In this document: positions 48,259 to 64,000 of the stretch, piece by piece
Position numbering within the stretch: the first letter of the stretch is position 1
Layout: every line of letters starts with the position of its first letter
NCBI GenBank assembly: GCA_944387225.1
Contig: CALXDY010000102.1
Span: 778 to 64,777, forward strand
Direction: 5' to 3'
Source: an uncultured Oscillospiraceae bacterium
Lineage (GTDB): Bacteria > Bacillota > Clostridia > Oscillospirales > Oscillospiraceae
Length of the DNA stretch: 64,000 nucleotides
Position numbers and translations under genes: made by a program
The notes under the pieces: generated by a model
Told to the model about the DNA's origin: nothing
The model's input: the letters and a program-made list of their open reading frames with translations, nothing else
The model's database searches: none

Positions 48259-48696
48259 CTAGGAAATTATTATTGGGCAATTTGTTGTAATTTCGCCGCT
48301 TTGAAGCACTTTCAAGTAGATTACGCCCTGTTTGAGTGGACATAATTTTTTTTGCTGCAGAAGCTCGCATTGTGGGAAGCATTCCTTCCCCTGACCCGAT
48401 ATTTCCAGGACGGCTTCCCCGCAGGTCACCGTTTCTCCCGGCTGCAGGCAGGAGAAATCCAGCCCTTCTATCTCTATGTTTGCCTTGAATTTTTTATAAC
48501 AAAGTCCGCTGTCCGGATGGGTCCGCACCCATTCCGCTGCCGCCGCGTCCACGGCGGTCATCTGGGTCTCGCCTCCCTTGGCAAAGCGATCCCCCTCCAT
48601 GCCCAAGTGGGCAAGGCACATGGCCTTGCCCACTTCTTCTCCAGGCTGTCCCTTGGCGGGAAAGCGCATGAGTTTCGTAATTTTTCCTGTCATCAT
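48259..48696 (-). CDS. MOSC-domain protein
   Basis: G.EGD.FA, F.ANI..EG.D, GKECFPQC...CP, VLQSGEI. Confidence 0.8.
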   Translation of the reverse strand: MMTGKITKLMRFPAKGQPGEEVGKAMCLAHLGMEGDRFAKGGETQMTAVDAAAAEWVRTHPDSGLCYKKFKANIEIEGLDFSCLQPGETVTCGEAVLEISGQGKECFPQCELLQQKKLCPLKQGVIYLKVLQSGEITTNCPIIIS

Positions 48697-48699
48697 GGC

Positions 48700-50613
48700 T
48701 CACCCCTCGTCGATGTAGAGGATGGTTCCGGCCTGGGTGGTCTCATACCCGCCCAGAGCCTCCACCTTCTCCCGGAACAAGTCGCTTTTCAGGATGGAGA
48801 TAAAATTCTGCACATGCTCCAGCTCCAGATAGGCCACTGGGACGGCAAAATCATACTCCTCATTCCCCACGGGCAGAAAATCCAGGCCCAGGGCGTTGGC
48901 GGCAGACAGAATGCCCATACCCGCATCAGCGCTGTCCCCCTGGATGGCGGCGGCCACCGCCATGTGGGTGGCAGCCTCCCGGTCATAGCCCTTGATCTCC
49001 TCCGGTGCGATCCCCTGCTTTTTCAGCAGATAGTCCAGCAGCACCCGGGTACCGGCGCCCCGCTGGCGGTTGATATAGCTCACCCGGGTCAGGTCGCCGA
49101 TCCCCTGGATGTTCAGAGGATTGCCCTTTTTCACAAGGATTCCCTGGACCCGGTTGACCCCCTTGATGAGGGCCATAGGCTGGCGGAAGAGCTTTTTCAG
49201 GTAGGAAATGTTATAAATTCCCGTCTCCTCATCCAGCAGATGGGTGGGCGCAATATGGGCCTCTCCCCGCTTCAGCGCCATCAGGCCGCCCATGCTGCCC
49301 AGATGGGTACTGGACAGGAAGGTACCAGGGTACAGGGTAGGCATCAGATCAGCCATCACGTCCAGAATCAGGTCGTGACTGCCGATGGCCACCACCGTGC
49401 GGTCGATCTCCGCCAGATCCCGGTAGAGCTCTACCTCCACCGTCTGTCCGGCCTCCACACCCTCGCTGTTCTGGGGAATGACGCAGAAGCCGTCGGCCCG
49501 TACCAAGCTCATGGCCGCGCCCGCACCTCTGGCCAGAGGAGAGGCAACCAGCTTCTCCCCCACCTTGCCCACCTTGACCCGTACATACTCCCGGTGCTTC
49601 AGGGAGGACACCAGCCGCTTGGACACCACGGCATCCACCCGGCTGCCCTGACGGCTGCACTCGCCGTTCATCCGCTCCAACACCGGAATAACGAAATTCT
49701 CAAAGTTAATATAGGCGGACACAGGATAACCGGGCAGACCGATCACCGGCTTGCCCCTGACGATGGCCAGAATCACCGGTTTGCCCGGCTTAATGGCCAC
49801 GCCGTGAACCAGCACCTGGCCCAGCTCCCGGAGAATATGGACGGTAAAGTCCTCCGTCCCGGCGCTGGAGCCGGCATTGACAATGACCATGTCGAAGTCG
49901 TCCACCGCCTTGTCAATGGCCGCCTTCAGCTTCTCATAGTCGTCGGCGATGGGGGCAAAGCGGGTGGGCTCCCCCCCATGCTCGGTCACCATGGCCTGGA
50001 ACATGCGGGAGTTGGATTCAATAATGTCCCCTTCCTTGGGCTCCTGACCCGGCTCAATGATCTCCGTACCGGTAGGAAAAATTGCTACTCTGGGACGCTT
50101 CACCACCGGGATATGGGTGATGCCTCCCGCCAGGAGCACCCCCAGATCAATGGGACGGATCTTGTGGAAGGAGGGCAGGATCATCTCCCCCGCCACAATG
50201 TCCTCTCCAATGGGACGGACATGCTGCCAGGGGGCGGCGGGCTGGACGATGGACAGTGTGCCGTCTGGCAGCTCCGTCAGATCCTCCGCCATAATGACCG
50301 CGTCATAGGGGTGCTTGATGGGATCCCCCGTATCCACCACCAGAAAATCCCGCTCCGGGTGCAGAATCACCGGCGCGCCCTCCCTGGCTCCCCTGGTGAT
50401 CTCGCTGCACACAGCCACCCCATCCATAGCGGCGGCATTGTAAAGGGGAGAGCAGTATTTGGCAAATACCGCCCTGTGGGTGATCCGGTGAAGGCTCTCC
50501 GTCACCGGGATCTCCTCCTCCCGGGGCGTGATCAAATCCTTCAGCGCCTCCAAGTAGAGGGCTTGGGCTTCGTCCACCGGAGTATTGCTCAGATATAGAT
50601 TTCTCTTTGCCAT
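48700..50613 (-). CDS. moeA: MoeA fused to a periplasmic-binding (PBP/LysR-type) domain, tungsten-locus type
   Basis: AAMDGVAV, PTGTE, AGSSAG.ED, KPGKP, LPGYPVSA; C-terminal IGSHD, GSMGGL, INRQRGAGTR, TH.AVA. Confidence 0.9.
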   Translation of the reverse strand: MAKRNLYLSNTPVDEAQALYLEALKDLITPREEEIPVTESLHRITHRAVFAKYCSPLYNAAAMDGVAVCSEITRGAREGAPVILHPERDFLVVDTGDPIKHPYDAVIMAEDLTELPDGTLSIVQPAAPWQHVRPIGEDIVAGEMILPSFHKIRPIDLGVLLAGGITHIPVVKRPRVAIFPTGTEIIEPGQEPKEGDIIESNSRMFQAMVTEHGGEPTRFAPIADDYEKLKAAIDKAVDDFDMVIVNAGSSAGTEDFTVHILRELGQVLVHGVAIKPGKPVILAIVRGKPVIGLPGYPVSAYINFENFVIPVLERMNGECSRQGSRVDAVVSKRLVSSLKHREYVRVKVGKVGEKLVASPLARGAGAAMSLVRADGFCVIPQNSEGVEAGQTVEVELYRDLAEIDRTVVAIGSHDLILDVMADLMPTLYPGTFLSSTHLGSMGGLMALKRGEAHIAPTHLLDEETGIYNISYLKKLFRQPMALIKGVNRVQGILVKKGNPLNIQGIGDLTRVSYINRQRGAGTRVLLDYLLKKQGIAPEEIKGYDREAATHMAVAAAIQGDSADAGMGILSAANALGLDFLPVGNEEYDFAVPVAYLELEHVQNFISILKSDLFREKVEALGGYETTQAGTILYIDEG

Positions 50614-50614
50614 T

Positions 50615-51853
50615 TCAAATTCCCAGCCGGAAAATTTCAACCGGCTCTCCTTTTCGGAGTCCTTCCTTGTTGCGATCCAACACAAGATATCCGTCCGCGT
50701 TCACCAACGTCCCCATCAGGCCGGACTTGCCCAAAACGGGAATGGCAGTCTGCCGCCCGTCCTCATCCTTCTGGATTTTCACCCACACAAAGGTGGTCTT
50801 GCCCGGAGCGCCGGGGATATTCAGCGCCATCTCCGCCTGCAGCGGCTTTTGCTCCCGCTGGCCTGTCAGCCGCTTCCACAGCCAGACGCCCAGCGCCTGA
50901 AAGATCATCAGCGCAGCCACCGGGTGGCCGGGCAGGCCGATCATCACCGTCTGGGAGGCGCCGTCAAAGGCCAGGATGGTGGGTTTGCCCGGCTTAACAC
51001 TCAGTCCGTGGGTCATAACCCCCCGGTCACACACCCGATCCATCAGCCGACAGGTATAATCTGCCTTCCCCTGGCTGCTGCCTCCCGACGTGAGCACCAA
51101 ATCCGCCTGTTCCTTCGCCTGGGTCAGCACCTGTTCCAGCAGTTCCTCCCGGTCAGGCAGAGTCTTGCGCAGGATGAGCTGGAATCCGCAGGCCTCGGCC
51201 AGAGCCGACAGGGCCCAGGTATTCACATCCCGCACCTGAGCCGGGCCGGCGGGCTGGGCAGGGTGCACCAGCTCGTCACCTGTGGACAGAATCGCCACTC
51301 GCCAGGGACGGAACACCTTCACTTCCCAGATTCCGGCGGCGGCCAGTGCCCCCACATGGGCTGGATTGAGCACGGTCCCTCTGGGGATCAGCACCGCCCC
51401 CTTCCGCACCTCTTCCCCAGGCACCACCACACTGGCGCCCTGGGCCACAGACTGGTACACCGCCACCTCGTCACCGTGGAAGTTTTCCGTGTATTCCACC
51501 ATTACCATGGCGTCCGCTCCCTTGGGAAGCATCCCCCCCGTAGGTACATAGGCGCAAGTACCGGAGCAGACCGTTGCCCGAGCCGGCCGGCCCATCACCA
51601 CCTCTTCCACCACCGTAAGGAAGGTGGGGATGCTCTCGCTGGCTCCCTGGGTGTCGGCAGCCACCACCGCGTATCCGTCCACTGTGGAGCGGTAAAAGTT
51701 GGGCACGTCGTCGGGCGCCAGCACATCCTCCGCCGTCACCCGGCCAAGGGCCTCCTCCAGAGAGACCACGGTGGTAGGCATGGGCCTGCCCTGCCAGCAG
51801 GCCAAGAGCTTTTCCCTGGCCTGCTCCAGGGTGTCAACTGTAAGCAGATTCAC
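50615..51853 (-). CDS. moeA: Molybdopterin molybdo/tungstotransferase MoeA
   Basis: RSTVDGYAV, TGG.LP.GADA.VMVE, STGDEL, SGGSS.G..D, KPGKPT, LPGHP. Confidence 0.93.
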   Translation of the reverse strand: MNLLTVDTLEQAREKLLACWQGRPMPTTVVSLEEALGRVTAEDVLAPDDVPNFYRSTVDGYAVVAADTQGASESIPTFLTVVEEVVMGRPARATVCSGTCAYVPTGGMLPKGADAMVMVEYTENFHGDEVAVYQSVAQGASVVVPGEEVRKGAVLIPRGTVLNPAHVGALAAAGIWEVKVFRPWRVAILSTGDELVHPAQPAGPAQVRDVNTWALSALAEACGFQLILRKTLPDREELLEQVLTQAKEQADLVLTSGGSSQGKADYTCRLMDRVCDRGVMTHGLSVKPGKPTILAFDGASQTVMIGLPGHPVAALMIFQALGVWLWKRLTGQREQKPLQAEMALNIPGAPGKTTFVWVKIQKDEDGRQTAIPVLGKSGLMGTLVNADGYLVLDRNKEGLRKGEPVEIFRLGI

Positions 51854-51859
51854 AACATC

Positions 51860-52549
51860 TCATCCTTTGAACGATACTTCTGTGTTTGCCAGATACTGGA
51901 TCACGCTGGGGTTGGTAGGGTGCTTGAGCACCTGCTCAGGCGTCCCACTTTGCACCAGCCGCCCCTGCTCCATAAAGTGCACCTCATCACACAGCTTGCT
52001 GATATGCACCAGCTGATGGCTGATGGTGATCCAGGTGATGGGGTTTTCCCGCTGCTGCTGCTCCATGATGGATTCAAACAGCCGCACCCCGTCGGGGGCA
52101 AGGTTGGAAAGGGTCTCGTCCACAATGACCAGCTTGGGGCCGAAGATCAGCGCCCGGGCAAAGGACAGCCGCTGCTGTTCACCGCTGCTGAGGGAGAGGG
52201 CATACTGCTTCCGCTTGTGCTGCAGCCCTGCCTTCTCCAGCCACTGATCCACCAGCTCTGCCCTGGGCTCAATCCCCCGGATTTTCAGGGGATAGATCAG
52301 GTTCTGATACACGCTGGAATGAAGCAGGTAGGGCTTCTGTCCGGTCATGGTGATGTCCCGGGGAGTCAAGCCCTCATAGTCAATGCAGCCGCTGTCGGCA
52401 GGAATAATACCCATGATCAGCTTGGCCAGGGTGGACTTTCCGCTTCCGTTGCTGCCTATCATACCATGGATTTTTCCCGGTTCAAAGTAGGCATTGTCAA
52501 TTTTCAGCAGAAAATCCCCCTGCCGCCGGGTCAGATCAGTAATTCTCAT
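51860..52549 (-). CDS. tupC: Tungstate ABC transporter ATPase
   Basis: GSNGSGKST, LSSGEQQR, IVDE, SH; in operon with tupAB. Confidence 0.82.
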   Translation of the reverse strand: MRITDLTRRQGDFLLKIDNAYFEPGKIHGMIGSNGSGKSTLAKLIMGIIPADSGCIDYEGLTPRDITMTGQKPYLLHSSVYQNLIYPLKIRGIEPRAELVDQWLEKAGLQHKRKQYALSLSSGEQQRLSFARALIFGPKLVIVDETLSNLAPDGVRLFESIMEQQQRENPITWITISHQLVHISKLCDEVHFMEQGRLVQSGTPEQVLKHPTNPSVIQYLANTEVSFKG

Positions 52550-53222
52550 CCTCTCTCACCTCTTTCCGGAACCAGTCGGCCAACGTCTGAACCACAAAGG
52601 CCATGAGCATCAGGATAATGCCCAAAAAGACTCCTTCATAGTAGTCTCCTGCCCCCTTCAGCGTGGAGATGGCGGTGGTCATGGTACGGGTGACATTTTT
52701 GATGTTGCCGCCCACCAGAAACACGGCGCCCACCTCGCTGATGCTGCGGCCATAACCGGAGACCACGGAGAAATAAACCTCATTCCGGATCTCCCGGAGA
52801 ATCAGCAGGTTGGTCTGCATCCGGTTGGCTCCCATGGTATGGGCAAAAGCCCGGATCCTGGGAGCCTCCCGCACCAGATAGGAGTATACCATGCCGCAGA
52901 TAATGGGGGTAATAATCAACGTCTGGGCTGTCACCATACCCTGAATAGTAAACACCCACCCCAAAAAGCCCAGTGGGCCCCGCTTTCTCAGAAGCATATA
53001 GGTCAATAGGCCCATTACCACCGGGGGAGCCCCCATCATCGTGCGGTTGATCCGTACCACCAGCCGTTTCATGGGAAACGTGCTCCGCTCCAGCAAAATG
53101 GCAAGGGTAACGCCCAGTATGGAGGAGATCAGGGTGGAAAAAAAGGACATGATAATGGTCACCCGGATGGAATCCAGCATTCCGATGGTGCCGAAAAATT
53201 CGGAGAAAAACGGTTCGTTCAT
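52536..53222 (-). CDS. tupB: Tungstate ABC transporter permease
   Basis: PPVVMGL, GPLG, GR.ISEVGA...VGGNI...TRTMTTAI. Confidence 0.88.
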   Translation of the reverse strand: MNEPFFSEFFGTIGMLDSIRVTIIMSFFSTLISSILGVTLAILLERSTFPMKRLVVRINRTMMGAPPVVMGLLTYMLLRKRGPLGFLGWVFTIQGMVTAQTLIITPIICGMVYSYLVREAPRIRAFAHTMGANRMQTNLLILREIRNEVYFSVVSGYGRSISEVGAVFLVGGNIKNVTRTMTTAISTLKGAGDYYEGVFLGIILMLMAFVVQTLADWFRKEVREDENY

Positions 53223-53301
53223 GGAATCACCCTATCTGTTCATGATTGGTCTGTTGGTTTATTGAGAAGAAGAAACAGGCCGCGCCGGACAGTATAAAAG
53301 C

Positions 53302-53335
53302 GGCCTACCGGAGGGCGCGCTCCCTCCGGTAGGCC
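53302..53335 (-). other. Strong intercistronic hairpin after tupA (mRNA stabiliser or partial terminator)
   Basis: GGCCTACCGGAGGG-CGCGCT-CCCTCCGGTAGGCC. Confidence 0.6.
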
Positions 53336-53351
53336 TGGGAATGAGGCGAAG

Positions 53352-54245
53352 TTACTTCGCGTTGGGGAAGAACAGGGGCTCACCGTACTCTTCCACACCG
53401 TACTGGCCGATGACCTCCTGGATCTCGTCAGAGGTGATCCACTCGATGAAGGCATTGGCGCCGTCGATGTTGGTGTCGGGGTACTTCTCAGGGTTGACAG
53501 CGATCACGCCATACTGGTTCAGCAGGTTGTCGTCGCCCTCACAGACAATGGACATCTGGGGGAAGTCAGCCTTCTTGGCCAGCCAGGTACCCCGGTCGGT
53601 GAGACAATAGCCGCCCATCTCGTCAGCCATCACCAGCGTATCGGCCATACCGGCACCGGCGGAGACGTAGTTGGGATTGGACTCATAATCCTCCACACCG
53701 ATGGCGGACCAAACGCCCAGCTCCTTGGTGTGGGTTCCGGAGTTGTCGCCCCGGGAGACGAAGGTCAGCTCGTCATTTCTAATCTGGGAGAAGGCGGCAT
53801 TGACGTCCTCGGTATAGGCCACAGGACCGTCGGTGGGGCCAACGATGACAAAGTCGTTGTACATAACCTCCACGCGCTCCACGCCGTAGCCGTCGTTGAC
53901 GAAGGCCTCCTCCTTGGCCTTGGCGTGAACCAGCAGCACGCTGACCTCGCCGTCCATACCCTTCTGGATGGCGTCGCCGGTGCCCACTGCGGTCCACTGC
54001 AGCTCATAGCCAGTGTCTTCCTTGAACATGGGGGCCAGATAATCCAGCAGGCCGGTATCATCGGTGCTGGTGGTGGTGGCCATCAGCAGGATGGGATCCT
54101 CAGGGGTCTTGACTTCATTCTGCGAGCTGGAGCCGGACGCAGAGGACTGCTGGGACTGGGAGCCGGAAGTGGTGTCCCCGCCGCAGGCAACCAGAGACAG
54201 GGCCATAAGCGCAGCAAGAGACGCGGTAAGCAGCTTGTTCATCAT
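53352..54245 (-). CDS. tupA: Tungstate-binding lipoprotein
   Basis: Lipobox LVAC; ATTTST.DTGLL tungstate motif, VGTG.A, MYNDFVIVGP, FVSRGDNSGTH.KE, LTDRGT, NQY. Confidence 0.93.
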   Translation of the reverse strand: MMNKLLTASLAALMALSLVACGGDTTSGSQSQQSSASGSSSQNEVKTPEDPILLMATTTSTDDTGLLDYLAPMFKEDTGYELQWTAVGTGDAIQKGMDGEVSVLLVHAKAKEEAFVNDGYGVERVEVMYNDFVIVGPTDGPVAYTEDVNAAFSQIRNDELTFVSRGDNSGTHTKELGVWSAIGVEDYESNPNYVSAGAGMADTLVMADEMGGYCLTDRGTWLAKKADFPQMSIVCEGDDNLLNQYGVIAVNPEKYPDTNIDGANAFIEWITSDEIQEVIGQYGVEEYGEPLFFPNAK

Positions 54246-54368
54246 TTCTTTCCTCCTACACAAATCTTTCTGTCAGGTGCCCGCGGGCACCCCATTGTGG
54301 TCTTGGAAAGACGGCGACAAGCACACCATATCCGCATCTCTTGGTAAAACGGCTATATAGTTCACTGT

Positions 54369-54524
54369 GTGCGTTTCTTTCCAAACGGGAGGCACGTCCG
54401 TTTCCAGACATACCCTCTGTGCCAGCCGCAAAATCCAGCCAGCACACCGGGGCAAACGCCATACGCAATCGCCGATCTTGCAAAATACCGGTTTTTGCGG
54501 TTAGATGTTCGCCCTCGAAACCAC
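54369..54524 (-). ncRNA. Moco/Tuco RNA motif (molybdenum/tungsten cofactor riboswitch)
   Basis: Minus strand: GUGGUUUCGAG-P2(GGGCGAACAUCUAA...UAUGGCGUUUGCCC)-P3(GUGCUGGCUG/CGGCUGGCAC)-AGAGG-P4(GUAUGUCUG-GAAA-CGGACGUGC)-CUCCCGUUUGGAAAG-AAACGCAC; lies in the tupA leader. Confidence 0.88.
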
Positions 54525-54551
54525 ATTCTCCCTGCTTGGGAGCTTATTGAG

Positions 54552-54636: not shown

Positions 54637-54710
54637 TTGCATTTCCTTCATGGTTGTAGTAGAATGATATCAGAAAAGACTAGAACGCAGTCTAGGCCAC
54701 GGTCTAGTTT
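54637..54710 (+). promoter_or_regulatory. Promoter of the hypD operon with a triple CTAG operator
   Basis: TTGCAT-17bp-TAGAAT; CTAG at 54680, 54692, 54704 (12-bp period). Confidence 0.65.
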
Positions 54711-54744: not shown

Positions 54745-55662
54745 GTGGAGACGCCACTGGTATTCAACATTCAAAAGTACTCCATTCATGATGGAGACGG
54801 CATCCGCACCAGTATCTTTTTTAAAGGATGTCCTCTGGACTGCGCCTGGTGCCACAACCCGGAGAGCCAGCGTTATTACCACGAGCTGATGTTCTTTGAC
54901 AGCCGATGCACCGGCTGCGGCGCCTGTGTTGCCCGGTGTCCTCAGAAGGCTGTTTCCATTGTGGACGGCAAGGCGGTAACCGACCGTAATCTGTGCAACG
55001 CCTGCGGCGTGTGTACAGACTGGTGCTACAACAGCGCCCGGGAAGTGGCCGGCAAGACCTACACGGTGGAGCAGCTGGTCAAGGAGGCCGAGAAAGACCG
55101 GATGTTCTATGAAAACTCCGGCGGCGGTATCACTCTCTCCGGCGGCGAAGTCATGGATCAGAACATGGATTACATCGAGCAGCTGTGCAAGACCCTGTAC
55201 GACAAGGGCTACAGCGTGGACATTGACACCTGCGGATATGCTCCTTACGAGAACTTCCAGCGGATCCTCCCCTACGTGGACACCTTCCTGTACGACATCA
55301 AGGCCATGGATCCCAAGATCCACAAGGAGTTCATCGGAACCGACAATCAGTTGATTCTGGAAAATCTGATCAAACTCAGCCGGGACGGCGCGAAAATCAA
55401 TATCCGCATTCCCGTTGTTATGGGCGTCAATGCTGACGACGCCTTTATGCAGGATGTGATCTCCTTCCTGAAGGAGAACAGCATCAGCGTGACTCAGGTG
55501 AATTTGCTGCCATATCACAACACCGGCATGCATAAGTATAGAAAGTTGGATCGTGCCTATCTCAAGGAAGAAGAGATGGGCGTCCCGTCCGGTGAGCTGA
55601 TGGAGCATTTTCAGGCACTATTCGTAGAGAACGGGTATTCGAACACAAACATAGGAGGGTAA
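54745..55662 (+). CDS. Glycyl-radical enzyme activase (HypD activating enzyme)
   Basis: HDGDGIRT..F.KGCPLDCAWCHNPE radical SAM motif, ferredoxin insert CTGCGACVARCP / CNACGVC, SGGE, LLPYH; GTG start. Confidence 0.93.
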   Translation: METPLVFNIQKYSIHDGDGIRTSIFFKGCPLDCAWCHNPESQRYYHELMFFDSRCTGCGACVARCPQKAVSIVDGKAVTDRNLCNACGVCTDWCYNSAREVAGKTYTVEQLVKEAEKDRMFYENSGGGITLSGGEVMDQNMDYIEQLCKTLYDKGYSVDIDTCGYAPYENFQRILPYVDTFLYDIKAMDPKIHKEFIGTDNQLILENLIKLSRDGAKINIRIPVVMGVNADDAFMQDVISFLKENSISVTQVNLLPYHNTGMHKYRKLDRAYLKEEEMGVPSGELMEHFQALFVENGYSNTNIGG

Positions 55663-55667
55663 AAGTT

Positions 55668-58061
55668 ATGGCACAGGTATTTGATCCCGTCAAAGAGCGC
55701 GGCATGAACGACCGCGTCAAGCGGCTGAGAAAGGAAAGCATGACCACTCAGCCCCACATCTACATGGAGCGCGCCATTCTGGAGACCGAGGCCTATAAGA
55801 TGTACGAGGGCAGCGTGTCCGTCCCCGAGCTGCGTGCCCTGGTTCTGAAGCACTTCTTCACCAACAAGACCATCTCCATCGGCCCCGACGAGCTGATCGT
55901 CGGTGAGAAGGGTGACGGCCCCCAGTCCGCCCCCACCTTCCCCGAGCTGTGCTGCCACACTCTGCAGGACATGCACAACATGAACGACCGTAAGATCGTC
56001 AACTTCTCCGTCACCGAGCAGGATCTGAAGACTCAGGAAGAGCTGATCATCCCCTTCTGGGAGAAGCGCTCCATGCGTAAGAAGATTCTGGACAGCATGA
56101 CCGATGAGTGGAAGGAAGCCTATGCCGCCGGTATCTTCACCGAGTTCATGGAGCAGCGCGGCCCCGGCCACACCGTTGGTTCCAGCAAGGCCTATGAGAA
56201 GGGCTATCTGGACTACAAGGCCGACATTCAGGAGTCCCTGGCCAAGCTGGACTACATGAACGATCCCGAGGCCATTGACAAGCGCAACCAGCTCAACGCT
56301 ATGAGCATCTGCTGCGACGCCATCATGATCCTGGGCGAGCGCTACGCCAAGCTGGCCCGTGAGATGGCCGCCAAGGAGACCGACGAGAAGCGTAAGGCCG
56401 AGCTGCTGCAGATCGCCGCCAACTGCGACGTGGTGCCCGCTCACAAGCCCCAGACCTTCTATCAGGCTGTTCAGTCCTACTGGTTCACCCACCTGGCTGT
56501 TACCACCGAGCTGAACCCCTGGGACGCTTATTCTCCCGGTCACTTCGACCAGCACCTGGGTCCCTTCTATGAGAGAGACACCAAGGCCGGTATCCTCACC
56601 CGCGATCAGGCTCAGGAGATCCTGGAGTGCCTGTGGGTAAAGTTCAACAACCAGCCCGCTCCTCCCAAGGTGGGTATCACCCTGAAGGAGAGCTCCACCT
56701 ACACCGACTTCGCCAACATCAACACCGGCGGCGTGACCCCCGAGGGTGAAGACGGCGTCAACGAGGTGTCCTACATCATCCTGGACTGCATGGATGATAT
56801 GCGTCTGGTTCAGCCCAACTCCAACGTGCAGATCAGCCGCAAGAATCCCCAGAAGTTCCTGAAGCGCGCCTGCGAGATCGCCCGTCAGGGTTGGGGCCAG
56901 CCTTGCTTCTACAACACCGAGGCCATTATCCAGGAGCTGCTGAATGCCGGCAAGACCATTGAGGATGCCCGTCGCGGCGGCTGCTCTGGCTGCGTTGAGA
57001 CCGGCGCCTTCGGCAACGAGGCTTACATTCTCCAGGGTTACTTCAACCTGCCCAAGATCTTCGAGCTGACTCTGTTCAACGGCGTGGATCAGATGACCGG
57101 CAAGCAGCTGGGCCTGCAGACCGGCAACGCCGAGGACTTCGAGACCTTCGAGCAGCTGTGGGATGCCTTCGCCAAGCAGGTGAAGCACTTCGTGGACGTC
57201 AAGGTTCAGGGCTCCAATGTTATTGAGGGTCTGTTCGCCCGCTACATGCCCGTGCCCTTCCTGTCCATCCTGACCAACGACTGCATCGAGCGCGGCAAGG
57301 ACTACAACGCCGGCGGCGCCCGCTACAACGTCAACTACATCCAGGGCGTGGGCATCGGCACCATCACCGACAGCATTGCCGCTGTGAAGTACAATGTGTA
57401 CGACAACAAGAAGTTCACCATGAAGGAGCTGCTGGATGCCATGAAGGCCAACTTCGTGGGCTACGAGAACATCCTGAACCTGGTGAAGAACAAGACTCCT
57501 AAGTACGGCAATGACGACGACTACGCTGACGACCTGATGAAGAAGGTGTTCTACCTCTATCAGGAGGAGGTCACCGGCCGTCCCAACATGAAGGGCGGTA
57601 CCTATCGTGTCGACATGCTGCCCACCACCTGCCACGTCTACTTCGGCAGCGTGATGATCGCCTCCCCCAACGGACGTCTGGCCAACAAGCCTGTTTCCGA
57701 GGGTATCTCCCCCGAGAAGGGCGCCGACATCAACGGCCCCACCGCCGTCATCAAGTCCTGCGCCAAGATGGACCACCTGAAGACCGGCGGCACCCTGCTG
57801 AACCAGAAGTTCACTCCCGATGTGCTGGCTGGCGAGAGCGGCCTGGATCACCTGGCTGACTACATCCGCACCTACTTCAACATGGACGGACACCATGTCC
57901 AGTTCAACGTGGTCAACCGTGACCTGCTCATCGACGCTCAGAACAATCCCGAGGAGTATCGTGACCTGATTGTCCGCGTGGCCGGCTACAGCGACTACTT
58001 CCGTAACCTGGATCGTCCTCTGCAGGATGAGATCATCGAGAGAACCGAGCAGCACTTCTAA
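55668..58061 (+). CDS. hypD: trans-4-hydroxy-L-proline dehydratase (glycyl radical enzyme)
   Basis: Matches C. difficile HypD signature segments as I recall them: FTEFMEQR.PGHT, TELN.WD, NNQPAPPKVGITLKESSTYTDFAN, SGCVETG, GY.N, MLPTTCH, RVAGYS. Confidence 0.93.
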   Translation: MAQVFDPVKERGMNDRVKRLRKESMTTQPHIYMERAILETEAYKMYEGSVSVPELRALVLKHFFTNKTISIGPDELIVGEKGDGPQSAPTFPELCCHTLQDMHNMNDRKIVNFSVTEQDLKTQEELIIPFWEKRSMRKKILDSMTDEWKEAYAAGIFTEFMEQRGPGHTVGSSKAYEKGYLDYKADIQESLAKLDYMNDPEAIDKRNQLNAMSICCDAIMILGERYAKLAREMAAKETDEKRKAELLQIAANCDVVPAHKPQTFYQAVQSYWFTHLAVTTELNPWDAYSPGHFDQHLGPFYERDTKAGILTRDQAQEILECLWVKFNNQPAPPKVGITLKESSTYTDFANINTGGVTPEGEDGVNEVSYIILDCMDDMRLVQPNSNVQISRKNPQKFLKRACEIARQGWGQPCFYNTEAIIQELLNAGKTIEDARRGGCSGCVETGAFGNEAYILQGYFNLPKIFELTLFNGVDQMTGKQLGLQTGNAEDFETFEQLWDAFAKQVKHFVDVKVQGSNVIEGLFARYMPVPFLSILTNDCIERGKDYNAGGARYNVNYIQGVGIGTITDSIAAVKYNVYDNKKFTMKELLDAMKANFVGYENILNLVKNKTPKYGNDDDYADDLMKKVFYLYQEEVTGRPNMKGGTYRVDMLPTTCHVYFGSVMIASPNGRLANKPVSEGISPEKGADINGPTAVIKSCAKMDHLKTGGTLLNQKFTPDVLAGESGLDHLADYIRTYFNMDGHHVQFNVVNRDLLIDAQNNPEEYRDLIVRVAGYSDYFRNLDRPLQDEIIERTEQHF

Positions 58062-58133
58062 TCCGCGATACCGTCCGGCCTCGGAGCATTGTCTCCTCCC
58101 GGCACCGGGATCGTCCCTGTTTAGAACCTGACG

Positions 58134-58172
58134 ACAACGAGGCCAGTGAGGAATCACTGGCCTCGTTGTGTT
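58134..58172 (+). terminator. Terminator after hypD
   Basis: ACAACGAGGCCAGTGA-GGAA-TCACTGGCCTCGTTGT-GTT. Confidence 0.75.
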
Positions 58173-58205
58173 ACTGTACCTCAGTCTAATATTTTTTCAG
58201 TCAGG

Positions 58206-58234
58206 TTGACAATGGGAAACGGTGCTGATATACT
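58206..58234 (+). promoter_or_regulatory. sigma-A promoter of the AOR operon
   Basis: TTGACA-17bp-TATACT with extended -10 TG. Confidence 0.75.
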
Positions 58235-58365
58235 CTTCTTTAAGGTACAATGACGGATTGTCCGTCGTTGGCTCCATTGATCCGCGGCCTTCGGTTCCCT
58301 GACGCGCAGGGGGATCGGGGGAAAAAGAGAAATCCAAATGCTACAGGAATGAGGGGGAAGTAAGT

Positions 58366-58752
58366 TTGAAACGCTTAGTAAAAGATGAATCTCTGTGTAT
58401 CGGCTGCCGCTCCTGTGAGCGGGCCTGTTCCACCGCCTATTATAAGGTAGACGACCGGGACAAGTCCTGTATCAAGATCAACGAGAAGCCCGAGGGCGGC
58501 TTTGAGATCAAGGTCTGCACCCAGTGCGGAATCTGCTACCAGGTGTGCAACACCGGTGTGATCCAGCCCAACCCCAAGGGTGTGTACATGCTCAACAAGA
58601 AAGAGTGCGTAGGCTGCCTGATGTGCGTGGGCTACTGCCCTGAGCAGGTGATGGTGCAGGATGACAGCCGCTCCGAGCCCTCCAAGTGCACCGCCTGCGG
58701 ACTGTGCGTGAAGGCCTGCCCCACCGGCGCCATCAAGATCGAAGACTGCTGA
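58366..58752 (+). CDS. Multi-[4Fe-4S] ferredoxin-like subunit of AOR
   Basis: CIGCRSCERAC, CTQCGIC..VC, CVGCLMC..YCP, CTACGLC..ACP; TTG start after GAGGGGG. Confidence 0.9.
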   Translation: MKRLVKDESLCIGCRSCERACSTAYYKVDDRDKSCIKINEKPEGGFEIKVCTQCGICYQVCNTGVIQPNPKGVYMLNKKECVGCLMCVGYCPEQVMVQDDSRSEPSKCTACGLCVKACPTGAIKIEDC

Positions 58753-58765
58753 GGAGGGATTTATC

Positions 58766-60988
58766 ATGATTATGATGTGTGATGTGCCCCGTTATAAAGA
58801 CGTGGACATGGAAGAAATCAACAAGATCCGCGATGCTCACGTCCTGCTGAACAAAGTGGAGTATGAGCCCAAGCAGATCTACCGCGGCTACACCGACAAG
58901 CTGCTGACCATTGACGTGTCCGACTCCTCCATCAAGATCTCCGACATCCCCGCCGAGGTCAAGGAGAAGTTCGTGGGCGGCAAGGGCTACTGCCTGCGCT
59001 ACCTGTGGGACGCCACCAACCCCAACACCAAGTGGGATTCCCCCGAGAACGAGATCGTCATGTCCGCCGGCCCCATCGCCGGTATCACCCAGTATGCCGG
59101 TACCGGCAAGATGCTGGTGTGTACCATCTCTCCCCTGACCGGTATTCCCATCGACTCCAACGTGGGCGGCTTCTTCGGCCCCTACCTGAAGTTCTCCGGC
59201 TTCGACGCCCTGGAGCTGAAGGGCCAGGCTGAGGAGGACGTGATCATCGTCATCGACGGCAACAAGGGCACCATCGAGATCGATAAGGCTCCCCTGGAGC
59301 ACCTGGACGCCCATGTGATCGGTGAGGAGCTCACCGCCATGTACGCCGACAATGAGAACGACCGCAAGCATGTGGCCGTGGTGTGCGCCGGTTCCGCCGC
59401 CGACCACTGCGACCTGTCCATGCTGAACTTCACCTTCTACGATCCCCGCCGTGGCGTGGTGCGTCTGAAGCAGGCCGGCCGCGGCGGCATCGGCCGTGTG
59501 TTCCGTCACAAGAGAGTCAAGGCCATCGTGTGTAAGTATCAGGGCATCAAGAACGACCTGAACCACGTGTATGATATCTCCATCATCAACAAGACCGGTG
59601 TGAAGTATCACCGTGAGATGGCCACCCAGGATCCCAAGCAGAACAACATGAGAAAGATTGGTACCGCCAATACCATGAAGATTCTCAATGACTACGATAT
59701 TCTGCCCACCCACAACTTCAAGTTCGGCGGCACCCCCAACATCAGCGAGATGGAGCCCAAGGTATTCATCGAGAACTGGCTGACCCAGGGCGGCGCTGAC
59801 GGCTGCTGGTATGGCTGCTCCATGGCCTGCGCCAAGGCTGCCGACCACTTCAAGCTGAAGACCGGCCCTTATGCCGGACAGTGTGTGGTGGTTGACGGCC
59901 CCGAGTACGAGACCGCTGCCGGTGTAGGCCCCAACTGCGGCATCACCGATCCTCAGGTCATTCTGGAGCTGAACTTCTACTGCGATACTTACGGCATCGA
60001 CACCATCTCCTGGGGCACCATGGTGGCCTTCCTCATGGAGTGCTATGAGAACGGCATCCTGAACAAGGAGCGCACCGGCGGCCTGGAGCTGAACTTCGGC
60101 AACGCCGCTGCCGACCTGGAGCTGCTGCACATGACCGCCCGGAACGAGGGCTTCGGCAAGATCGCCGGCATGGGCACCCACAAGCAGAAGGAGTACTTCG
60201 CCGCTCAGGGCTGGGGCGACATCAACTTCATGAACGACATCGCCATGGAGCAGAAGGGCCTGGAGTATTCTGAGTACGGCTCCAAGGAGTCCCTGGCTCA
60301 GCAGGGCGGCTACGGCCTGACCAACAAGGGCCCCCAGCACGACGAGGCCTGGCTGATCTTCATGGATCAGGTCAACAACCAGATCCCCACCTTCGAGGAC
60401 AAGGCTGAGGCTCTGTACTACTATCCCCGGTTCCGTACCTGGTTCGGCCTGGTGGGTCTGTGCAAGCTGCCCTGGAACGACGTGGTGCCGGAGAACAACG
60501 CCCTTACCGACGAGCCCGCCAAGGTGCCTGAGCACGTGGACAACTACCTGAACCTGTTCTACGGCGTGACCGGCCGGAAGATCGACCGTGAGGACCTGCT
60601 GGTCATGTCCGAGCGTGTGTATAACTTCCAGCGTATCTTCAACATCCGTCTGGGCAAGGGTCTGAGAAAGCACGACGCCATCCCCTACCGTTCCGTGGGC
60701 CCTGTTACCGAGGAGGAGTATCTCTCCCGTCAGGAGCGCTATGACGGCCAGCTGGTGGAGAAGGCCGGCTATACCAAGGAGCAGATGGAGGCCATGTCCC
60801 TCCAGGAGAAGATGGCTGCCACCCGTAAGTACCGCGAGGGTGAGTACGAGAAGCTGATCGACGCTGTGTACCCCAAGCGTGGCTGGACCATGAACGGCGT
60901 GCCCAAGGTGGAGCACCTGAAGAAGATCGGCATGGACCTGCCCGAGCTGCTTGAGATTGTGGAGCCTCTGCAGGATCTGCAGCCCTAA
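58766..60988 (+). CDS. aor: Tungsten-dependent aldehyde:ferredoxin oxidoreductase family (AOR/WOR) catalytic subunit
   Basis: GGKG, SPLTG...DSNVGG.FGP.LK..GFDAL, AGRGG.G, CWYGCSMAC, GPEYET, CDTYGIDTIS, GLCK, RGW..NGVP. Confidence 0.92.
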   Translation: MIMMCDVPRYKDVDMEEINKIRDAHVLLNKVEYEPKQIYRGYTDKLLTIDVSDSSIKISDIPAEVKEKFVGGKGYCLRYLWDATNPNTKWDSPENEIVMSAGPIAGITQYAGTGKMLVCTISPLTGIPIDSNVGGFFGPYLKFSGFDALELKGQAEEDVIIVIDGNKGTIEIDKAPLEHLDAHVIGEELTAMYADNENDRKHVAVVCAGSAADHCDLSMLNFTFYDPRRGVVRLKQAGRGGIGRVFRHKRVKAIVCKYQGIKNDLNHVYDISIINKTGVKYHREMATQDPKQNNMRKIGTANTMKILNDYDILPTHNFKFGGTPNISEMEPKVFIENWLTQGGADGCWYGCSMACAKAADHFKLKTGPYAGQCVVVDGPEYETAAGVGPNCGITDPQVILELNFYCDTYGIDTISWGTMVAFLMECYENGILNKERTGGLELNFGNAAADLELLHMTARNEGFGKIAGMGTHKQKEYFAAQGWGDINFMNDIAMEQKGLEYSEYGSKESLAQQGGYGLTNKGPQHDEAWLIFMDQVNNQIPTFEDKAEALYYYPRFRTWFGLVGLCKLPWNDVVPENNALTDEPAKVPEHVDNYLNLFYGVTGRKIDREDLLVMSERVYNFQRIFNIRLGKGLRKHDAIPYRSVGPVTEEEYLSRQERYDGQLVEKAGYTKEQMEAMSLQEKMAATRKYREGEYEKLIDAVYPKRGWTMNGVPKVEHLKKIGMDLPELLEIVEPLQDLQP

Positions 60989-61007
60989 GGAAAAAGAGGT
61001 GAGCATT

Positions 61008-61205
61008 ATGATGTTGAATGACCGTCCCTATCCCGATTGGCATGAGGGGCTGACCATCCAGGGTGTCATCGAGCACATGAATTTCACATGGCCGAAGCTG
61101 GTGACCAAGGTAAATGGACAGCTGGTCTGGCCGGAGGACTACCCCAACGTGGTGTTGGCGGAGGACGACGACCTGAAAATTCATCATCTGCTCGCCGGCG
61201 GATAA
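61008..61205 (+). CDS. ThiS/MoaD-like sulfur carrier
   Basis: 65 aa, VNG, C-terminal AGG. Confidence 0.88.
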   Translation: MMLNDRPYPDWHEGLTIQGVIEHMNFTWPKLVTKVNGQLVWPEDYPNVVLAEDDDLKIHHLLAGG

Positions 61206-61302: not shown

Positions 61303-62061
61303 ATGGAGGATCAGCAGCGGTACCACCGTCACTACATTCTGCCTCAGATCGGGAAAGAGGGCCAGGAGAAATTCCGCCGCAGCAAGGTATTGATCATCGG
61401 CGTAGGCGGGCTGGGCTGCCCGGTAGCCATGCAGCTGGCCGCCGCCGGCATCGGCACCATCGGACTGGTGGATTACGACGTGGTGGAGGCTTCCAACCTG
61501 CAGCGACAGGTTCTTTACACGGAACGCGATCTGGGCAAGCCCAAGGCGGAATGCGCCGCCCGACGGTTGAAGGAAATGAACAGCGAATGTGAGGTTCTTG
61601 TTTATCCGTGGAAATTAACCCAGGAGAACTGTGTGCAATTGTTCGCGGAATATGATATAATAGTGGACGCGACCGACAACTTTGACACACGCTACCTGAT
61701 TAGTGACGCCTGCGTGGAGCTGAACAAGCCCCATGTCTACGGCGCGATCTATGAGTTTTATGGCCAGGTGGCCATCCTTGGGGGCCAGGGCCCCTGTCTG
61801 CGGTGCCTCAGCGACCCGGAACGGGATCCCAGGCAGCCCATCAGCGCCCGAAAGGTGGGCGTACTGGCCCCGGTACCCGGGGTAATCGGCTCCCTTCAGG
61901 CCTGCGAGGTGCTGAAATATATTGCCGGGGCCGGGCAGTGCCTCACCGGCAGCATGATTTTTCTGGACATGCTGACCATGCAGTTTGACCGGGTGGAGCT
62001 GTCCAAAAACCCCAGATGCCCCCTGTGTGGGAACGGAGGAACACAATGGAAGAAAAACTGA
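61303..62061 (+). CDS. moeB: MoeB/ThiF-family sulfur-carrier adenylyltransferase
   Basis: [37 protein letters not shown]. Confidence 0.9.
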
Positions 62062-62522
62062 CTCACTTCGATGCCAACGGCAAGGCCATTATGGTGGATG
62101 TATCCGGCAAAGCGGAAACCTCCCGCACCGCCATCGCCTCCGGCATCATTCAGGTCAATGACAAGGTGATGCGCGCGGTGGTTGAAGGCACGGCGGAGAA
62201 GGGCGACGTCCTGGGTGTGGCCCGGGTAGCCGGGATCATGGCTGCCAAGCAGACGCCCCATCTGATCCCTATGTGCCATCCCCTGCTTTTGTCCAAGTGC
62301 GCCGTTGACTTTGAGCTTGACCAGGCGCATAATCAAATCAAAGCCCTGTGCACGGTCAAAATCAGCGGCCAGACCGGGGTGGAAATGGAAGCCCTTACCG
62401 GCGTGTCCGTGGCTCTGCTGACCATTTATGACATGTGCAAGGCCATTGACAAGCGCATGGAGCTGTCCCAAATCCACCTGGAGTACAAGTCCGGCGGAAA
62501 GAGCGGAGAGTTCGTACGATGA
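62046..62522 (+). CDS. moaC: Cyclic pyranopterin monophosphate synthase
   Basis: [43 protein letters not shown]. Confidence 0.96.
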
Positions 62523-63496
62523 AAGACAGCTTTGGCAGAACAATTGATTATCTCCGCGTTTCCGTCACCGACCGGTGCAACCTGCGCTGCGTCTACTGCA
62601 TGCCGGAGGAAGGCGTGGAAAGCATCCCTCACAGCCAGATCCTCACCTTTGATGAGATCCATGCCCTGTGCGCCTTTATGGCCCGGTACGGGTTAAAGAA
62701 AATCAAGATCACCGGCGGCGAGCCCCTGGTGCGGAAGGGAATTCCCAACCTGATCGCTCAGCTGAAATCCATTCCCGGCATTTCCAGCGTGACCATCACC
62801 ACCAACGGAGTGCTGCTGGATTCGTACTATCATCCGCTGGTGGAGGCGGGCGTGGACTGCATCACCGTCAGCCTGGATACCCTGAGCCGGGAGAAGTATC
62901 AGGCCCTCACCCGCCGGGACCAGCTGGACGCGGTGCTCCGGGGAATTCATCTGGCCCAGGAAGAGAACCTGGTGAAACTGAAGATTAACGCCGTGCCCAC
63001 CGCCCCCCTGGACGGAGACGAGGTCATCCGCCTGGCGCAATTCGCCCAGAACCATGACACGGACGTCCGGTTTATTGAGGTCATGCCCATCGGTATGGGC
63101 ACCCAGTTCCAGGCGGTTGGTGAAAACCAGGTGCGGAGCATTCTGGAGGAACGGTTCGGTCCCATGACCATTTGTCATGAGGTGCGGGGCAACGGCCCGT
63201 CGGTATACTACTCTCTGGATGGTTTTCTGGGGAAAATCGGCTTTATCAGCGCCGTCAGTCACAAATTCTGCGATACCTGCAATCGGGTACGGCTGACCGC
63301 CGACGGCTATTTGAAGACCTGCCTGCAGTACGACACCGGCGTGATGCTCCGGCCCTACCTGCGGGACTGGGACGAGGCCGGCCTGTTCGATGCCCTGACC
63401 CGTGGGATCCAGGCCAAGCCCAAGGGCCATCACTTTGAGGCCCATGAAGAGTTTACAGATCGTGAACATCGAAAGATGTCACAGATTGGAGGATAG
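62519..63496 (+). CDS. moaA: GTP 3',8-cyclase
   Basis: [47 protein letters not shown]. Confidence 0.96.
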
Positions 63497-63497
63497 T

Positions 63498-64000
63498 ATG
63501 GGAAAGGTAATCGCCACCTGCATCAGCGAGATCAAGGGTGTGCAGAAGAGAAACGTACATCAGGTGACCCTGCGGGAAAATCACGGCATTGAGGGAGACG
63601 CCCACGCCGGCAACTGGCACCGCCAGGTCAGCCTGCTCTCCTGGGATAAGATCGAGGAATTCCGCCGCCGGGGCGCTGTGGTGGAAGACGGCGCCTTCGG
63701 AGAAAACCTGGTTGTGGAAGGGATTGACTTCAAAACCCTGCCCATCGGGACCCAGTTCACCTGCGGCGAGGTGGTATTGGAGCTGACCCAGATCGGCAAG
63801 GAGTGCCATCAGGGCTGTGCCATCTATCAGCAGATGGGCGACTGCATCATGCCCCGGGAAGGGGTATTTACCCGGGTGCTCCGCGGCGGCGTGATCCAGG
63901 AAGGAGACGATCTGGAAATCAGCTTTCTCCCCTTTCGGGTAGCCATTATCACTTCCAGCGACTCCGGCTATCAGGGGCAGCGTGAGGACAAAAGCGCCCC
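63498..64000 (+). CDS. MOSC domain fused to a MogA/MoaB-like domain (runs off the window)
   Basis: MGKVIATCIS..KG..K, GIEGDAHAG.WHRQVSLLS, GAFGEN, TQIGKECH.GC...CIMPREG.F; then RVAIITSSD.GY.G.REDKS (MogA start). Confidence 0.88.
   Translation, partial: MGKVIATCISEIKGVQKRNVHQVTLRENHGIEGDAHAGNWHRQVSLLSWDKIEEFRRRGAVVEDGAFGENLVVEGIDFKTLPIGTQFTCGEVVLELTQIGKECHQGCAIYQQMGDCIMPREGVFTRVLRGGVIQEGDDLEISFLPFRVAIITSSDSGYQGQREDKSA

Follow-up and report, generated by a model that had tools for sequence, protein, structure and literature searches.

trans-4-Hydroxy-L-proline dehydratase (HypD) produces pyrroline-5-carboxylate (P5C), which hydrolyses to glutamate-5-semialdehyde. What becomes of P5C is unclear for most hypD carriers, and its conversion to glutamate by a "putative dehydrogenase" encoded near hypD was already proposed by Huang et al. 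in 2018 (PMC6219649). Tungsten-containing oxidoreductases (WORs) of class II consist of a large subunit, WorL, and an adjacent WorS with four [4Fe-4S] clusters, without N or ABC subunits, and a defined physiological role is reported for only five of 92 WOR clades (PMC13328260). Here, we analyze a locus in which the two systems meet. The window is a 64,000-nucleotide stretch of contig CALXDY010000102.1 (our C102) from the 2.0 Mb, 81% complete genome (G000) of an uncultured Oscillospiraceae bacterium, likely a gut-dwelling anaerobe. Its hypD and activase genes are followed by genes for a WOR of the aldehyde:ferredoxin oxidoreductase (AOR) family. We propose, at a probability of roughly two in three, that this WOR is a P5C/glutamate-5-semialdehyde:ferredoxin oxidoreductase acting downstream of HypD.

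A first-pass annotation, made from the letters of the window alone, had listed an activase-hypD pair and a ferredoxin-aor-thiS/moaD set enclosed by tungstate and pterin genes. Our domain annotation, which covers the open reading frames (ORFs) from 40479 to the window end (those in 1-40000 were listed without annotation), returned the same genes in the same order (Table 1). HypD and its adjacent cognate activase both exceed curated cutoffs, and the best solved match of HypD is 6VXC. All 12 active-site residues compared are kept (H160, D278, S334, D339, F340, C434, E436, Y450, T645, G765, F152, and L643 in Clostridioides difficile numbering), with F152, L643, and G765 being positions that we take to belong to the active site. 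Roles of eight of these residues, plus C434, are given in PMC7077986. By sequence, the hypD product is a HypD, predicted to dehydrate hydroxyproline to P5C.

The small gene before aor does encode an Fe-S protein, as first annotated, but not a simple ferredoxin. Its 128 residues hold four CxxCxxCxxxC motifs, which make it most likely a WorS subunit and the whole enzyme most likely a class II WOR (WorS-WorL with a ThiS-like WorX) of an uncharacterised clade. A WorX-like gene follows the AOR in most loci compared, and some distant clade members have no detectable WorS neighbour. The window AOR carries both AFOR domains, and its predicted model (pLDDT 88) adopts the AOR fold. Second-shell residues T300, E382, Y504, and H525 and cluster ligands C347, C351, C355, and C566 of WorL are invariant in 55/55 aligned homologues. 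Identity to solved family members is 20-26% (23-25% to PfAOR, AaAOR, and CaAOR, 26% to the formaldehyde oxidoreductase PfFOR, and 22% to WOR5), whereas within its own clade it is 54-99%. AOR sensu stricto (clade 87) was excluded by the 23-25% value. We also considered clade 81, that of Eubacterium limosum WOR2, which has the gene order S-L-X, is the most abundant gut clade, and has no assigned function (PMC13328260); it found no support, with no E. limosum name among the matches listed (best 120, two lists).

The predicted pocket resembles that of FOR. Clade-invariant H525-x-E-x-W, R557, and C566-K567-x-x-W570 line up with H-K-E-A-W, R481, and C-R492-L-P-W of PfFOR, motifs that were matched by eye, the profile alignment being gapped there. 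After that cysteine, a basic residue is lacking in the broad-range enzymes PfAOR and AaAOR. FOR has been crystallised with glutarate, and glutaric semialdehyde has been proposed as its substrate (PMC12096430), while PMC12318220 states that the glutarate structure gave no insight into function. Because glutamate-5-semialdehyde is 2-amino glutaric semialdehyde, the FOR-like basic residues fit it as the WorL substrate. In a fold search, FOR came out no higher than other AORs (TM 0.67-0.73), so that the fold gives no substrate clue.

The neighbours of the wider clade point to the same metabolite. At least 7,995 protein clusters belong to it (all but four of the 7,999 candidates scored reach E <= 1e-100), its named members occur in peptide-fermenting genera, and its range takes in Clostridia, Anaerolineae, Bacteroidota, and Asgard archaea. 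In an even draw across the class, 398 genomes were scored besides G000; 24 of them hold 26 AOR copies, and all 26 loci were examined. Seventeen copies come after a five-part operon resembling those for dye-linked proline dehydrogenase, three follow proC in the same slot (proC-worS-worL; L116, L117, and L247), one is divergent from pruA, and one lies directly behind pxpABC (L101). The remaining four lack such a neighbour (two are outliers at 47-48%, and two are near contig ends). The partners of these 22/26 copies, and of the HypD loci, have one metabolite in common, P5C. Among solved structures, the dehydrogenase-like beta subunit matches 1Y56_B best (E 1e-89; sarcosine oxidase reaches 1e-49). 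We take the 1Y56 entry to be the Pyrococcus horikoshii proline dehydrogenase; its structure file names it sarcosine oxidase. A hypD-specific WOR was rejected, as most clade members have other neighbours. The suggestion that the AOR acts on HypD-derived P5C thus gains comparative support from linkage, a shared control site, interchangeable neighbours, and FOR-like residues, but the enzyme is not hydroxyproline specific: most clade members adjoin the proline-dehydrogenase-like operon.

The pxpABC genes directly 5' of worS-worL in L101 would suit a different chemistry, in which the WOR hydroxylates the cyclic imine to 5-oxoproline, to be opened to glutamate by an ATP-dependent oxoprolinase. It is established chemistry that P5C predominates in solution, and pxpB occurs in 3/3 linked relatives examined. 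We regard this route as very improbable: it has a single instance among the 26 copies, pxpB was not found in G000 at its 81% completeness, and the enzyme retains all four second-shell residues that serve aldehyde oxidation.

Close relatives repeat the link between this AOR and hypD. Scanning species-representative genomes gave 154 relatives, and the analysis kept the best 80. Twenty-four loci have an AOR 77-99% identical to that of the window: 13 carry hypD or the activase in the flank, four do not over the full 10 kb upstream, and seven are too short. The repeated adjacency that the first-pass annotation proposed to test for therefore holds in 13/17 informative loci, but not from the hypD side (0/80 metagenome loci). 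Nor is it confined to the one lineage, as two arrangements were seen, in Oscillospiraceae and Lachnospiraceae. The window gene order recurs in three loci (L013, L019, and L020), and in the other ten, hypD-activase is divergent from tupABC-moeA-moeA-MOSC-worS-worL. Two of the four genomes without the link have hypD on another contig (L131 and L132), divergent from moaC-moaA-MOSC-mogA-TetR, so that it stays tied to the pterin genes after the cluster has split. A separate branch, L038, has AOR, pruA, proC, and hypD within ~9 kb. To 96 full-length loci we added the window and two outgroups for a FastTree phylogeny that leaves out partial matches and duplicates. In it, the linked AORs fall into two groups nested among dehydrogenase-linked AORs, one from Oscillospiraceae (support 1.0) and one of Lachnospiraceae type (0.99). 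Two isolate genomes, Clostridium fessum and Otoolea muris, have this clade together with hypD tied to its genes.

Other genes were recorded around these clusters. At L265:8391-12418 (G081:C25), ~4 kb from hypD, are a sarcosine-reductase-type grdG (880 > 780) and a grdF-like frame whose stop, 349 residues into a model of 435 positions, is likely a selenocysteine; together they are a possible acceptor branch for hydroxyproline oxidation. A proline iminopeptidase gene lies directly 3' of hypD at L134:6113-7006, which fits the use of collagen peptides, and at L139:9982-11187 (G186, Anaerolineae), a gene for a proline-dehydrogenase-like beta subunit is directly 5' of activase-hypD. In the Lachnospiraceae-type loci L024 (16502-19326), L031, and L053, genes for a BCCT-family transporter, an orphan glycyl-radical activase, and a UvrA-like protein are 3' of the AOR cluster; in the Clostridia loci L108 and L109, a YjjI-type glycyl-radical enzyme and its activase come directly after AOR.

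The first-pass annotation overlooked tandem palindromes at the activase promoter, as well as the riboswitch before tupA, the AgcS symporter, and the TetR gene. A TAGA-N6-TCTA dyad is present in 21/23 activase upstream regions by an unbiased dyad count, and we trained a site matrix on 19 activase-promoter sites with the window excluded (background, 2 matches in 462 kb and 5 in 639 kb). The window sites at 54680 and 54692 are the two top scores in the 2.0 Mb genome, and we consider these tandem palindromes likely to be a repressor operator. The matrix also matches 5' of worS at p < 0.005 in 9/12 loci of the Oscillospiraceae subclade; the other three reach p = 0.04, 0.05 (the window), and 0.075. 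In L019 and L020, intact sites (21.0 and 17.8 bits) occupy the matching place, free-standing and 7-8 bases 5' of the -35 box. No worS-proximal site was found in the other loci (0/12); in many of these, worS comes immediately after MOSC and has no promoter of its own. The site precedes agcS in five loci (L014, L015, L016, L022, and L135), but not in the window, and pruA in 1/17 genomes (two had no upstream DNA). A candidate operator at pruA of G000 (9.5 bits) was rejected: it overlaps the start and is not conserved, and 14 sites genome-wide, this one included, reach 9 bits or more.

The TetR-family protein encoded past the window end may bind the palindrome and is a candidate hydroxyproline regulator. 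Its orthologues accompany hypD with or without this AOR (L097 and L130-L134), and L026 and L028, where hypD is unlinked, have no TetR gene after mogA. Orthologues of agcS likewise adjoin hypD in L014-16, L095, L097, L135, and L224, including L097, the locus where this AOR was not found, and AgcS presumably imports hydroxyproline. Two further palindromes deserve mention on their own. Within the MOSC gene of four loci (L017:7418, L018:4193, L072:6252, and L239:14902), a second copy lies exactly 353 bases 5' of the worS-proximal one. The third-best palindrome of G000 (C40:13913, or L237:5914; 16.1 bits) is 5' of genes for an aminotransferase and an NhaC/ArcD-like transporter and may be a chance match or a regulon member.

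A terminator and a separate promoter had been placed between hypD and aor. The promoter stands; the "terminator" is a strong hairpin that lacks a U-tract and is unlisted by a terminator scan. The worS leader (58240-58370) has two hairpins, with folding not above shuffles (z -1.2) and no Rfam match. The strongly biased codon usage noted by eye for hypD and aor was borne out by effective numbers of codons of 27.9 and 26.7, respectively, in the lowest 3.9% and 1.2% of 568 long ORFs of G000. The codons of agcS are biased too. This bias is of the catabolic type and suggests high flux. We also looked for RNA evidence in four animal-gut runs from two studies, which contain contig pieces nearly identical to hypD and agcS and a few to worS-aor (26, 15, 12, and 14 contigs at >=99% identity on the locus, against 32, 3, 0, and 1 on a control stretch, at differing thresholds). 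Expression was not counted as evidence because contigs cannot show level, strand, or co-transcription.

Several observations weigh against the proposed role. Concerning linkage, AOR, tup, or moe genes were found in 0/80 metagenome hypD loci, 31 of which have at least 3 kb downstream and 25 at least 9 kb upstream, and a genome of the same genus, G006, holds both AOR and hypD unlinked. The node uniting the Oscillospiraceae and Lachnospiraceae-type groups has a support of 0.62. With two joined groups and the separate L038 branch in the tree, the linkage may have arisen only about twice, and most cases may be one inherited event. The loci that carry the shared site are likewise kin. The window worS site, at 5.6 bits, is the best in the hypD-worS intergenic region, yet it is degenerate, and seven of the nine strong worS sites lie in or resemble a terminator stem (by eye), an overlap that favours palindromic matches. 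Concerning the enzyme, the comparison with PfFOR presumes that its R481 and R492 hold the distal carboxylate. Glutamate-5-semialdehyde is mostly cyclised. As the aldehyde/acid couple is also near the ferredoxin potential (PMC13328260), the direction of the reaction is not guaranteed. The dehydrogenase-like family of the 17 operons also holds opine, D-hydroxyproline, and HCN enzymes, and a near subfamily is inactive on proline (PMC4575208). P5C neighbours become rare farther off, with 1/40 distant loci (pruA, L071) and 1/14 further Anaerolineae loci (proBA, L261). Finally, G000 encodes an NAD-dependent P5C dehydrogenase, PruA, on contig C18 (TIGR01236, 746 > 614), and pruA is present in 24/40 related AOR genomes, so that pruA and the WOR are not complementary.

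The linkage points could mean that the hypD-WOR adjacency is an accident of history, left by the transfer of one island, and that the WOR substrate is unrelated. Besides 0/80 and G006, the separate promoter and the weak window site agree with such an origin. We think it improbable, given that the link survives two arrangements and a cluster split, that the shared site is present in 9/12 loci, and that the clade has five other kinds of proline/P5C neighbour. A general hypD-AOR linkage, by contrast, was rejected: beyond the metagenome loci, no pair is adjacent in two class draws (closest, 67 kb). As for other neighbours, proC accompanies 20/80 metagenome hypD loci. A draw within the genus gave AOR in 1/36 genomes and hypD matches in 4/36 (three above the cutoff and one contig-end fragment), and in two same-genus genomes where AOR was not found, hypD is beside pruA (G028) or proC (G005).

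Co-occurrence gives a mixed picture. Matches to hypD were found in 33/40 near and 26/40 distant AOR genomes; these totals include contig-end fragments whose scores are HypD-like, 7 and 2, respectively. Among 221 Anaerolineae, 28 have both genes, 38 AOR only, 19 hypD only, and 136 neither. Fifty of the 66 AOR genomes there have hypD or the dehydrogenase-like subunit; 38/66 are without hypD and 16/66 without both, which again counts against a P5C role. The class draw splits into 17 genomes with both, 7 with AOR only, 22 with hypD only, and 352 with neither. We did not treat its odds ratio of 39 as a test, since the value comes mostly from two families, one of which, f33, shows no association (7/4/4/2), a further unfavourable point. 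All of these tables serve as descriptions, not tests, because kin are not independent.

The first-pass annotation had also argued from missing genes. Within the annotated ORFs, there is indeed no proC, proline reductase, or P5C dehydrogenase gene, but the argument fails because the genome encodes both proC (contig C129, TIGR00112, 235 > 197) and the PruA named above, each above its cutoff. No D-proline reductase was found in G000 at 81% completeness, with a positive control genome in use, and 24/24 close genomes gave no proline-reductase-like match. In 6/7 hypD-only genomes of families f61 and f62, weak long-frame matches were taken as PrdA, unconfirmed.

With PruA and ProC at hand, the WOR could instead be an auxiliary or broad aldehyde remover co-induced with HypD, the two other enzymes carrying the P5C flux to NADH or proline. 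The presence of PruA in 24/40 relatives agrees with this, as do the assignment of most characterised WORs to aldehyde detoxification (PMC13328260) and the title of a paper cited in PMC12041015, seen as a title alone, on a tungsten AOR and an NAD dehydrogenase acting jointly in one pathway. We nevertheless judge it unlikely. The shared site precedes AOR but pruA in only 1/17 genomes, the aor codon bias is in the top 1.2%, the narrow FOR-like pocket residues are invariant across phyla, and the AOR of the class draw is an operon partner of proline/P5C genes.

The proline genes raise one more alternative. No proB passed its cutoff in any of the five genomes examined (G000, G067, G072, G077, and G079), and G000 gave no proA-type match, so that a WOR running reductively, from glutamate to the semialdehyde with reduced ferredoxin and without ATP, could feed ProC where ProBA is lacking. 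The proC-worS-worL operons of L116, L117, and L247 would suit this direction, and AORs are able to reduce acids (PMC12096430). A P5C-making enzyme is not expected under the same control site as the P5C-making HypD, however; 17/26 class copies sit behind the dehydrogenase-like operon, and the codon bias suggests high flux, all of which make a reductive role improbable. Proline supply in these proC-bearing genomes may depend on hydroxyproline or uptake. Ornithine aminotransferase was rejected as a P5C source (0/5 above the cutoff), and no proline-dehydrogenase-like subunit passed in G000. With no proB, ornithine aminotransferase, or such subunit, HypD is the sole P5C source found in G000, at its 81% completeness.

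Taking the WOR as a P5C/glutamate-5-semialdehyde oxidoreductase, the pathway would run as follows. AgcS would take up hydroxyproline, and the TetR protein would leave the palindrome, so that hypD, worSL, and the symporter gene are released together. HypD and its activase would convert hydroxyproline to P5C and hence glutamate-5-semialdehyde. Class II WORs use ferredoxin, and WorSL, with a likely tungsten cofactor, would oxidise the semialdehyde to glutamate and pass electrons through the four-cluster subunit to ferredoxin. Reduced ferredoxin would be reoxidised at Rnf; rnfC was found in 5/5 genomes examined, with two rnfC genes in G000. The unlinked PruA, whose gene is without the site in 16/17 genomes, could serve as a tungsten-independent alternative, and ProC could divert some P5C to proline. 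Glutamate might be fermented further via a hydroxyglutarate-type locus. A locus that resembles one, with 2-hydroxyacyl-CoA dehydratase genes and then biotin-carrier genes, was seen at G000:C50:13591-15374 (L244) and in L243; it is cut by the contig end in G000, and its matches are under the named cutoffs. Elsewhere in the clade, P5C would come from the proline-dehydrogenase-like complex or ProC, and in these gut lineages from HypD. We lean, with rather more reserve, toward a generalisation of this scheme, in which the clade is the anaerobes' tungsten-based P5C dehydrogenase, linking proline, hydroxyproline, and ornithine breakdown to ferredoxin, and in gut Oscillospiraceae and Lachnospiraceae has come under a hydroxyproline-responsive TetR operator with HypD, driving Rnf.

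The metal is probably tungsten rather than molybdenum, judging by the enzyme family and the tup-like genes. The best family of TupA is NF041772 (261 bits against a cutoff of 400), TupB and TupC are also under their cutoffs, and TupA has the TTTS motif. The riboswitch family RF01055 serves both Mo and W cofactors. The left flank of the island is ordinary, with a DUF1846-type conserved hypothetical gene (NF010184) and a CTP synthase gene (41492-42979 and 44634-46244).

Table 1. Features of the hypD-worSL region, in window positions unless a genome position is given; "x > y" is a score and its family cutoff.
Feature	Position	Strand	Basis
AgcS Na+/amino-acid symporter, candidate hydroxyproline importer	46347..47846	-	TIGR00835 326 > 273
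MOSC-domain protein	48259..48696	-	PF03473, weak, E 5e-6
MoeA fused to PBP-like domain (metal insertion)	48700..50610	-	NF011068 763 > 534; PF12727
MoeA	50615..51853	-	MoeA_N, MoCF_biosynth, MoeA_C
tupABC-type oxyanion ABC transporter	51860..54245	-	TupA, TupB, TupC all under family cutoffs
Moco/tungsten-cofactor riboswitch before tupA	54358..54532	-	RF01055 56.4 bits, gathering 36
Two tandem palindromic sites, TAGA-N6-TCTA type, just 3' of activase promoter	54680..54707	.	24.7 + 18.3 bits
HypD activating enzyme, radical SAM	54745..55662	+	NF043069 442 > 425
HypD, trans-4-hydroxy-L-proline dehydratase	55668..58061	+	NF043068 1484 > 1100
Strong hairpin 3' of hypD, without U-tract	~58130..58172	+	-35.2 kcal/mol, z -6.9
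Degenerate palindromic site 5' of worS-aor promoter	58174..58189	.	5.6 bits, shuffle p = 0.05
Sigma-70-type promoter of worS-aor	58206..58234	+	TTGACA-17-TATACT, 11/12 consensus matches
Four-cluster polyferredoxin, likely WorS	58366..58752	+	four CxxCxxCxxxC motifs
WorL, AOR/WOR-family large subunit	58766..60988	+	PF02730 + PF01314 (AFOR_N + AFOR_C)
ThiS/MoaD-like sulfur carrier (WorX), Gly-Gly end	~61008..61205	+	TIGR01683 31 bits, under cutoff 37
moeB, moaC, moaA, MOSC-mogA (pterin synthesis)	61303..64000	+	
TetR-family gene past window end, 3' of MOSC-mogA	G000:C102:65248-65841 (= L099:5249-5842)		

The first-pass claim that no pathway like this had been described is too strong in view of the hydroxyproline-to-glutamate proposal of Huang et al. 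(PMC6219649). The first step is known and the end product has been proposed; the hypD link, the shared control site, and a tungsten- and ferredoxin-linked second step would be new. We found no literature joining HypD or P5C with a WOR, subscription journals being mostly outside the coverage of the search, and a term search of PMC13328260 (main text and three supplements) found neither proline nor HypD nor semialdehyde mentioned. With a specific substrate proposed for a large clade, a candidate regulator and operator, and two isolate genomes, the questions of WOR roles and P5C fate become directly testable. If the proposed role is true, hydroxyproline from collagen would be a tungsten-dependent electron donor, the reverse of its textbook Stickland role, C. 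difficile may face competition for it from gut commensals, and its flux would respond to dietary tungsten.

The described systems each share part of this arrangement. P. furiosus FOR (PDB 1B25/1B4N; PMC12096430) has the AOR fold, the H-x-E-A-W and C-[RK]-L-P-W motifs, and the upstream Arg in common with the window WorL, which is 26% identical, 120 residues longer, and accompanied by a WorS subunit. FOR is neither its top sequence match nor its top fold match, and the substrate proposed here bears an alpha-amino group. The class II WORs of Caldicellulosiruptor bescii (GOR), P. furiosus (ASOR/WOR5), and E. limosum (WOR2) have the same layout of WorS and WorL, with or without WorX (PMC13328260 and PMC11725836), but appear to belong to another clade with other neighbours, and WOR5 is 22% identical. 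Among them, C. bescii GOR sets a precedent, being a tungsten enzyme linked to ferredoxin that does the work of an NAD dehydrogenase. The proposed net reaction, semialdehyde to glutamate, equals that of NAD-dependent PruA/RocA (TIGR01236/TIGR01237), from which the WOR differs in its unrelated fold and cofactor and with which it coexists in G000 and the 24 relatives.

Similar in outcome is the proposal for Oscillibacter valericigenes, where hypD and a "putative dehydrogenase" would likewise take P5C to glutamate (PMC6219649). We saw the order pruA-activase-hypD in G028, whose dehydrogenase is the NAD-type PruA, whereas the window has a pterin-metal enzyme that would reduce ferredoxin. Similar in its first step is the Stickland route of C. 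difficile through HypD, its activase, and ProC (PDB 6VXC; PMC7077986 and PMC6219649), with an orthologous HypD and activase and all of the checked residues kept here. The window hypD, however, has no adjacent proC, which lies on contig C129, and its partner is a WOR, so that hydroxyproline would be an electron donor rather than an acceptor.

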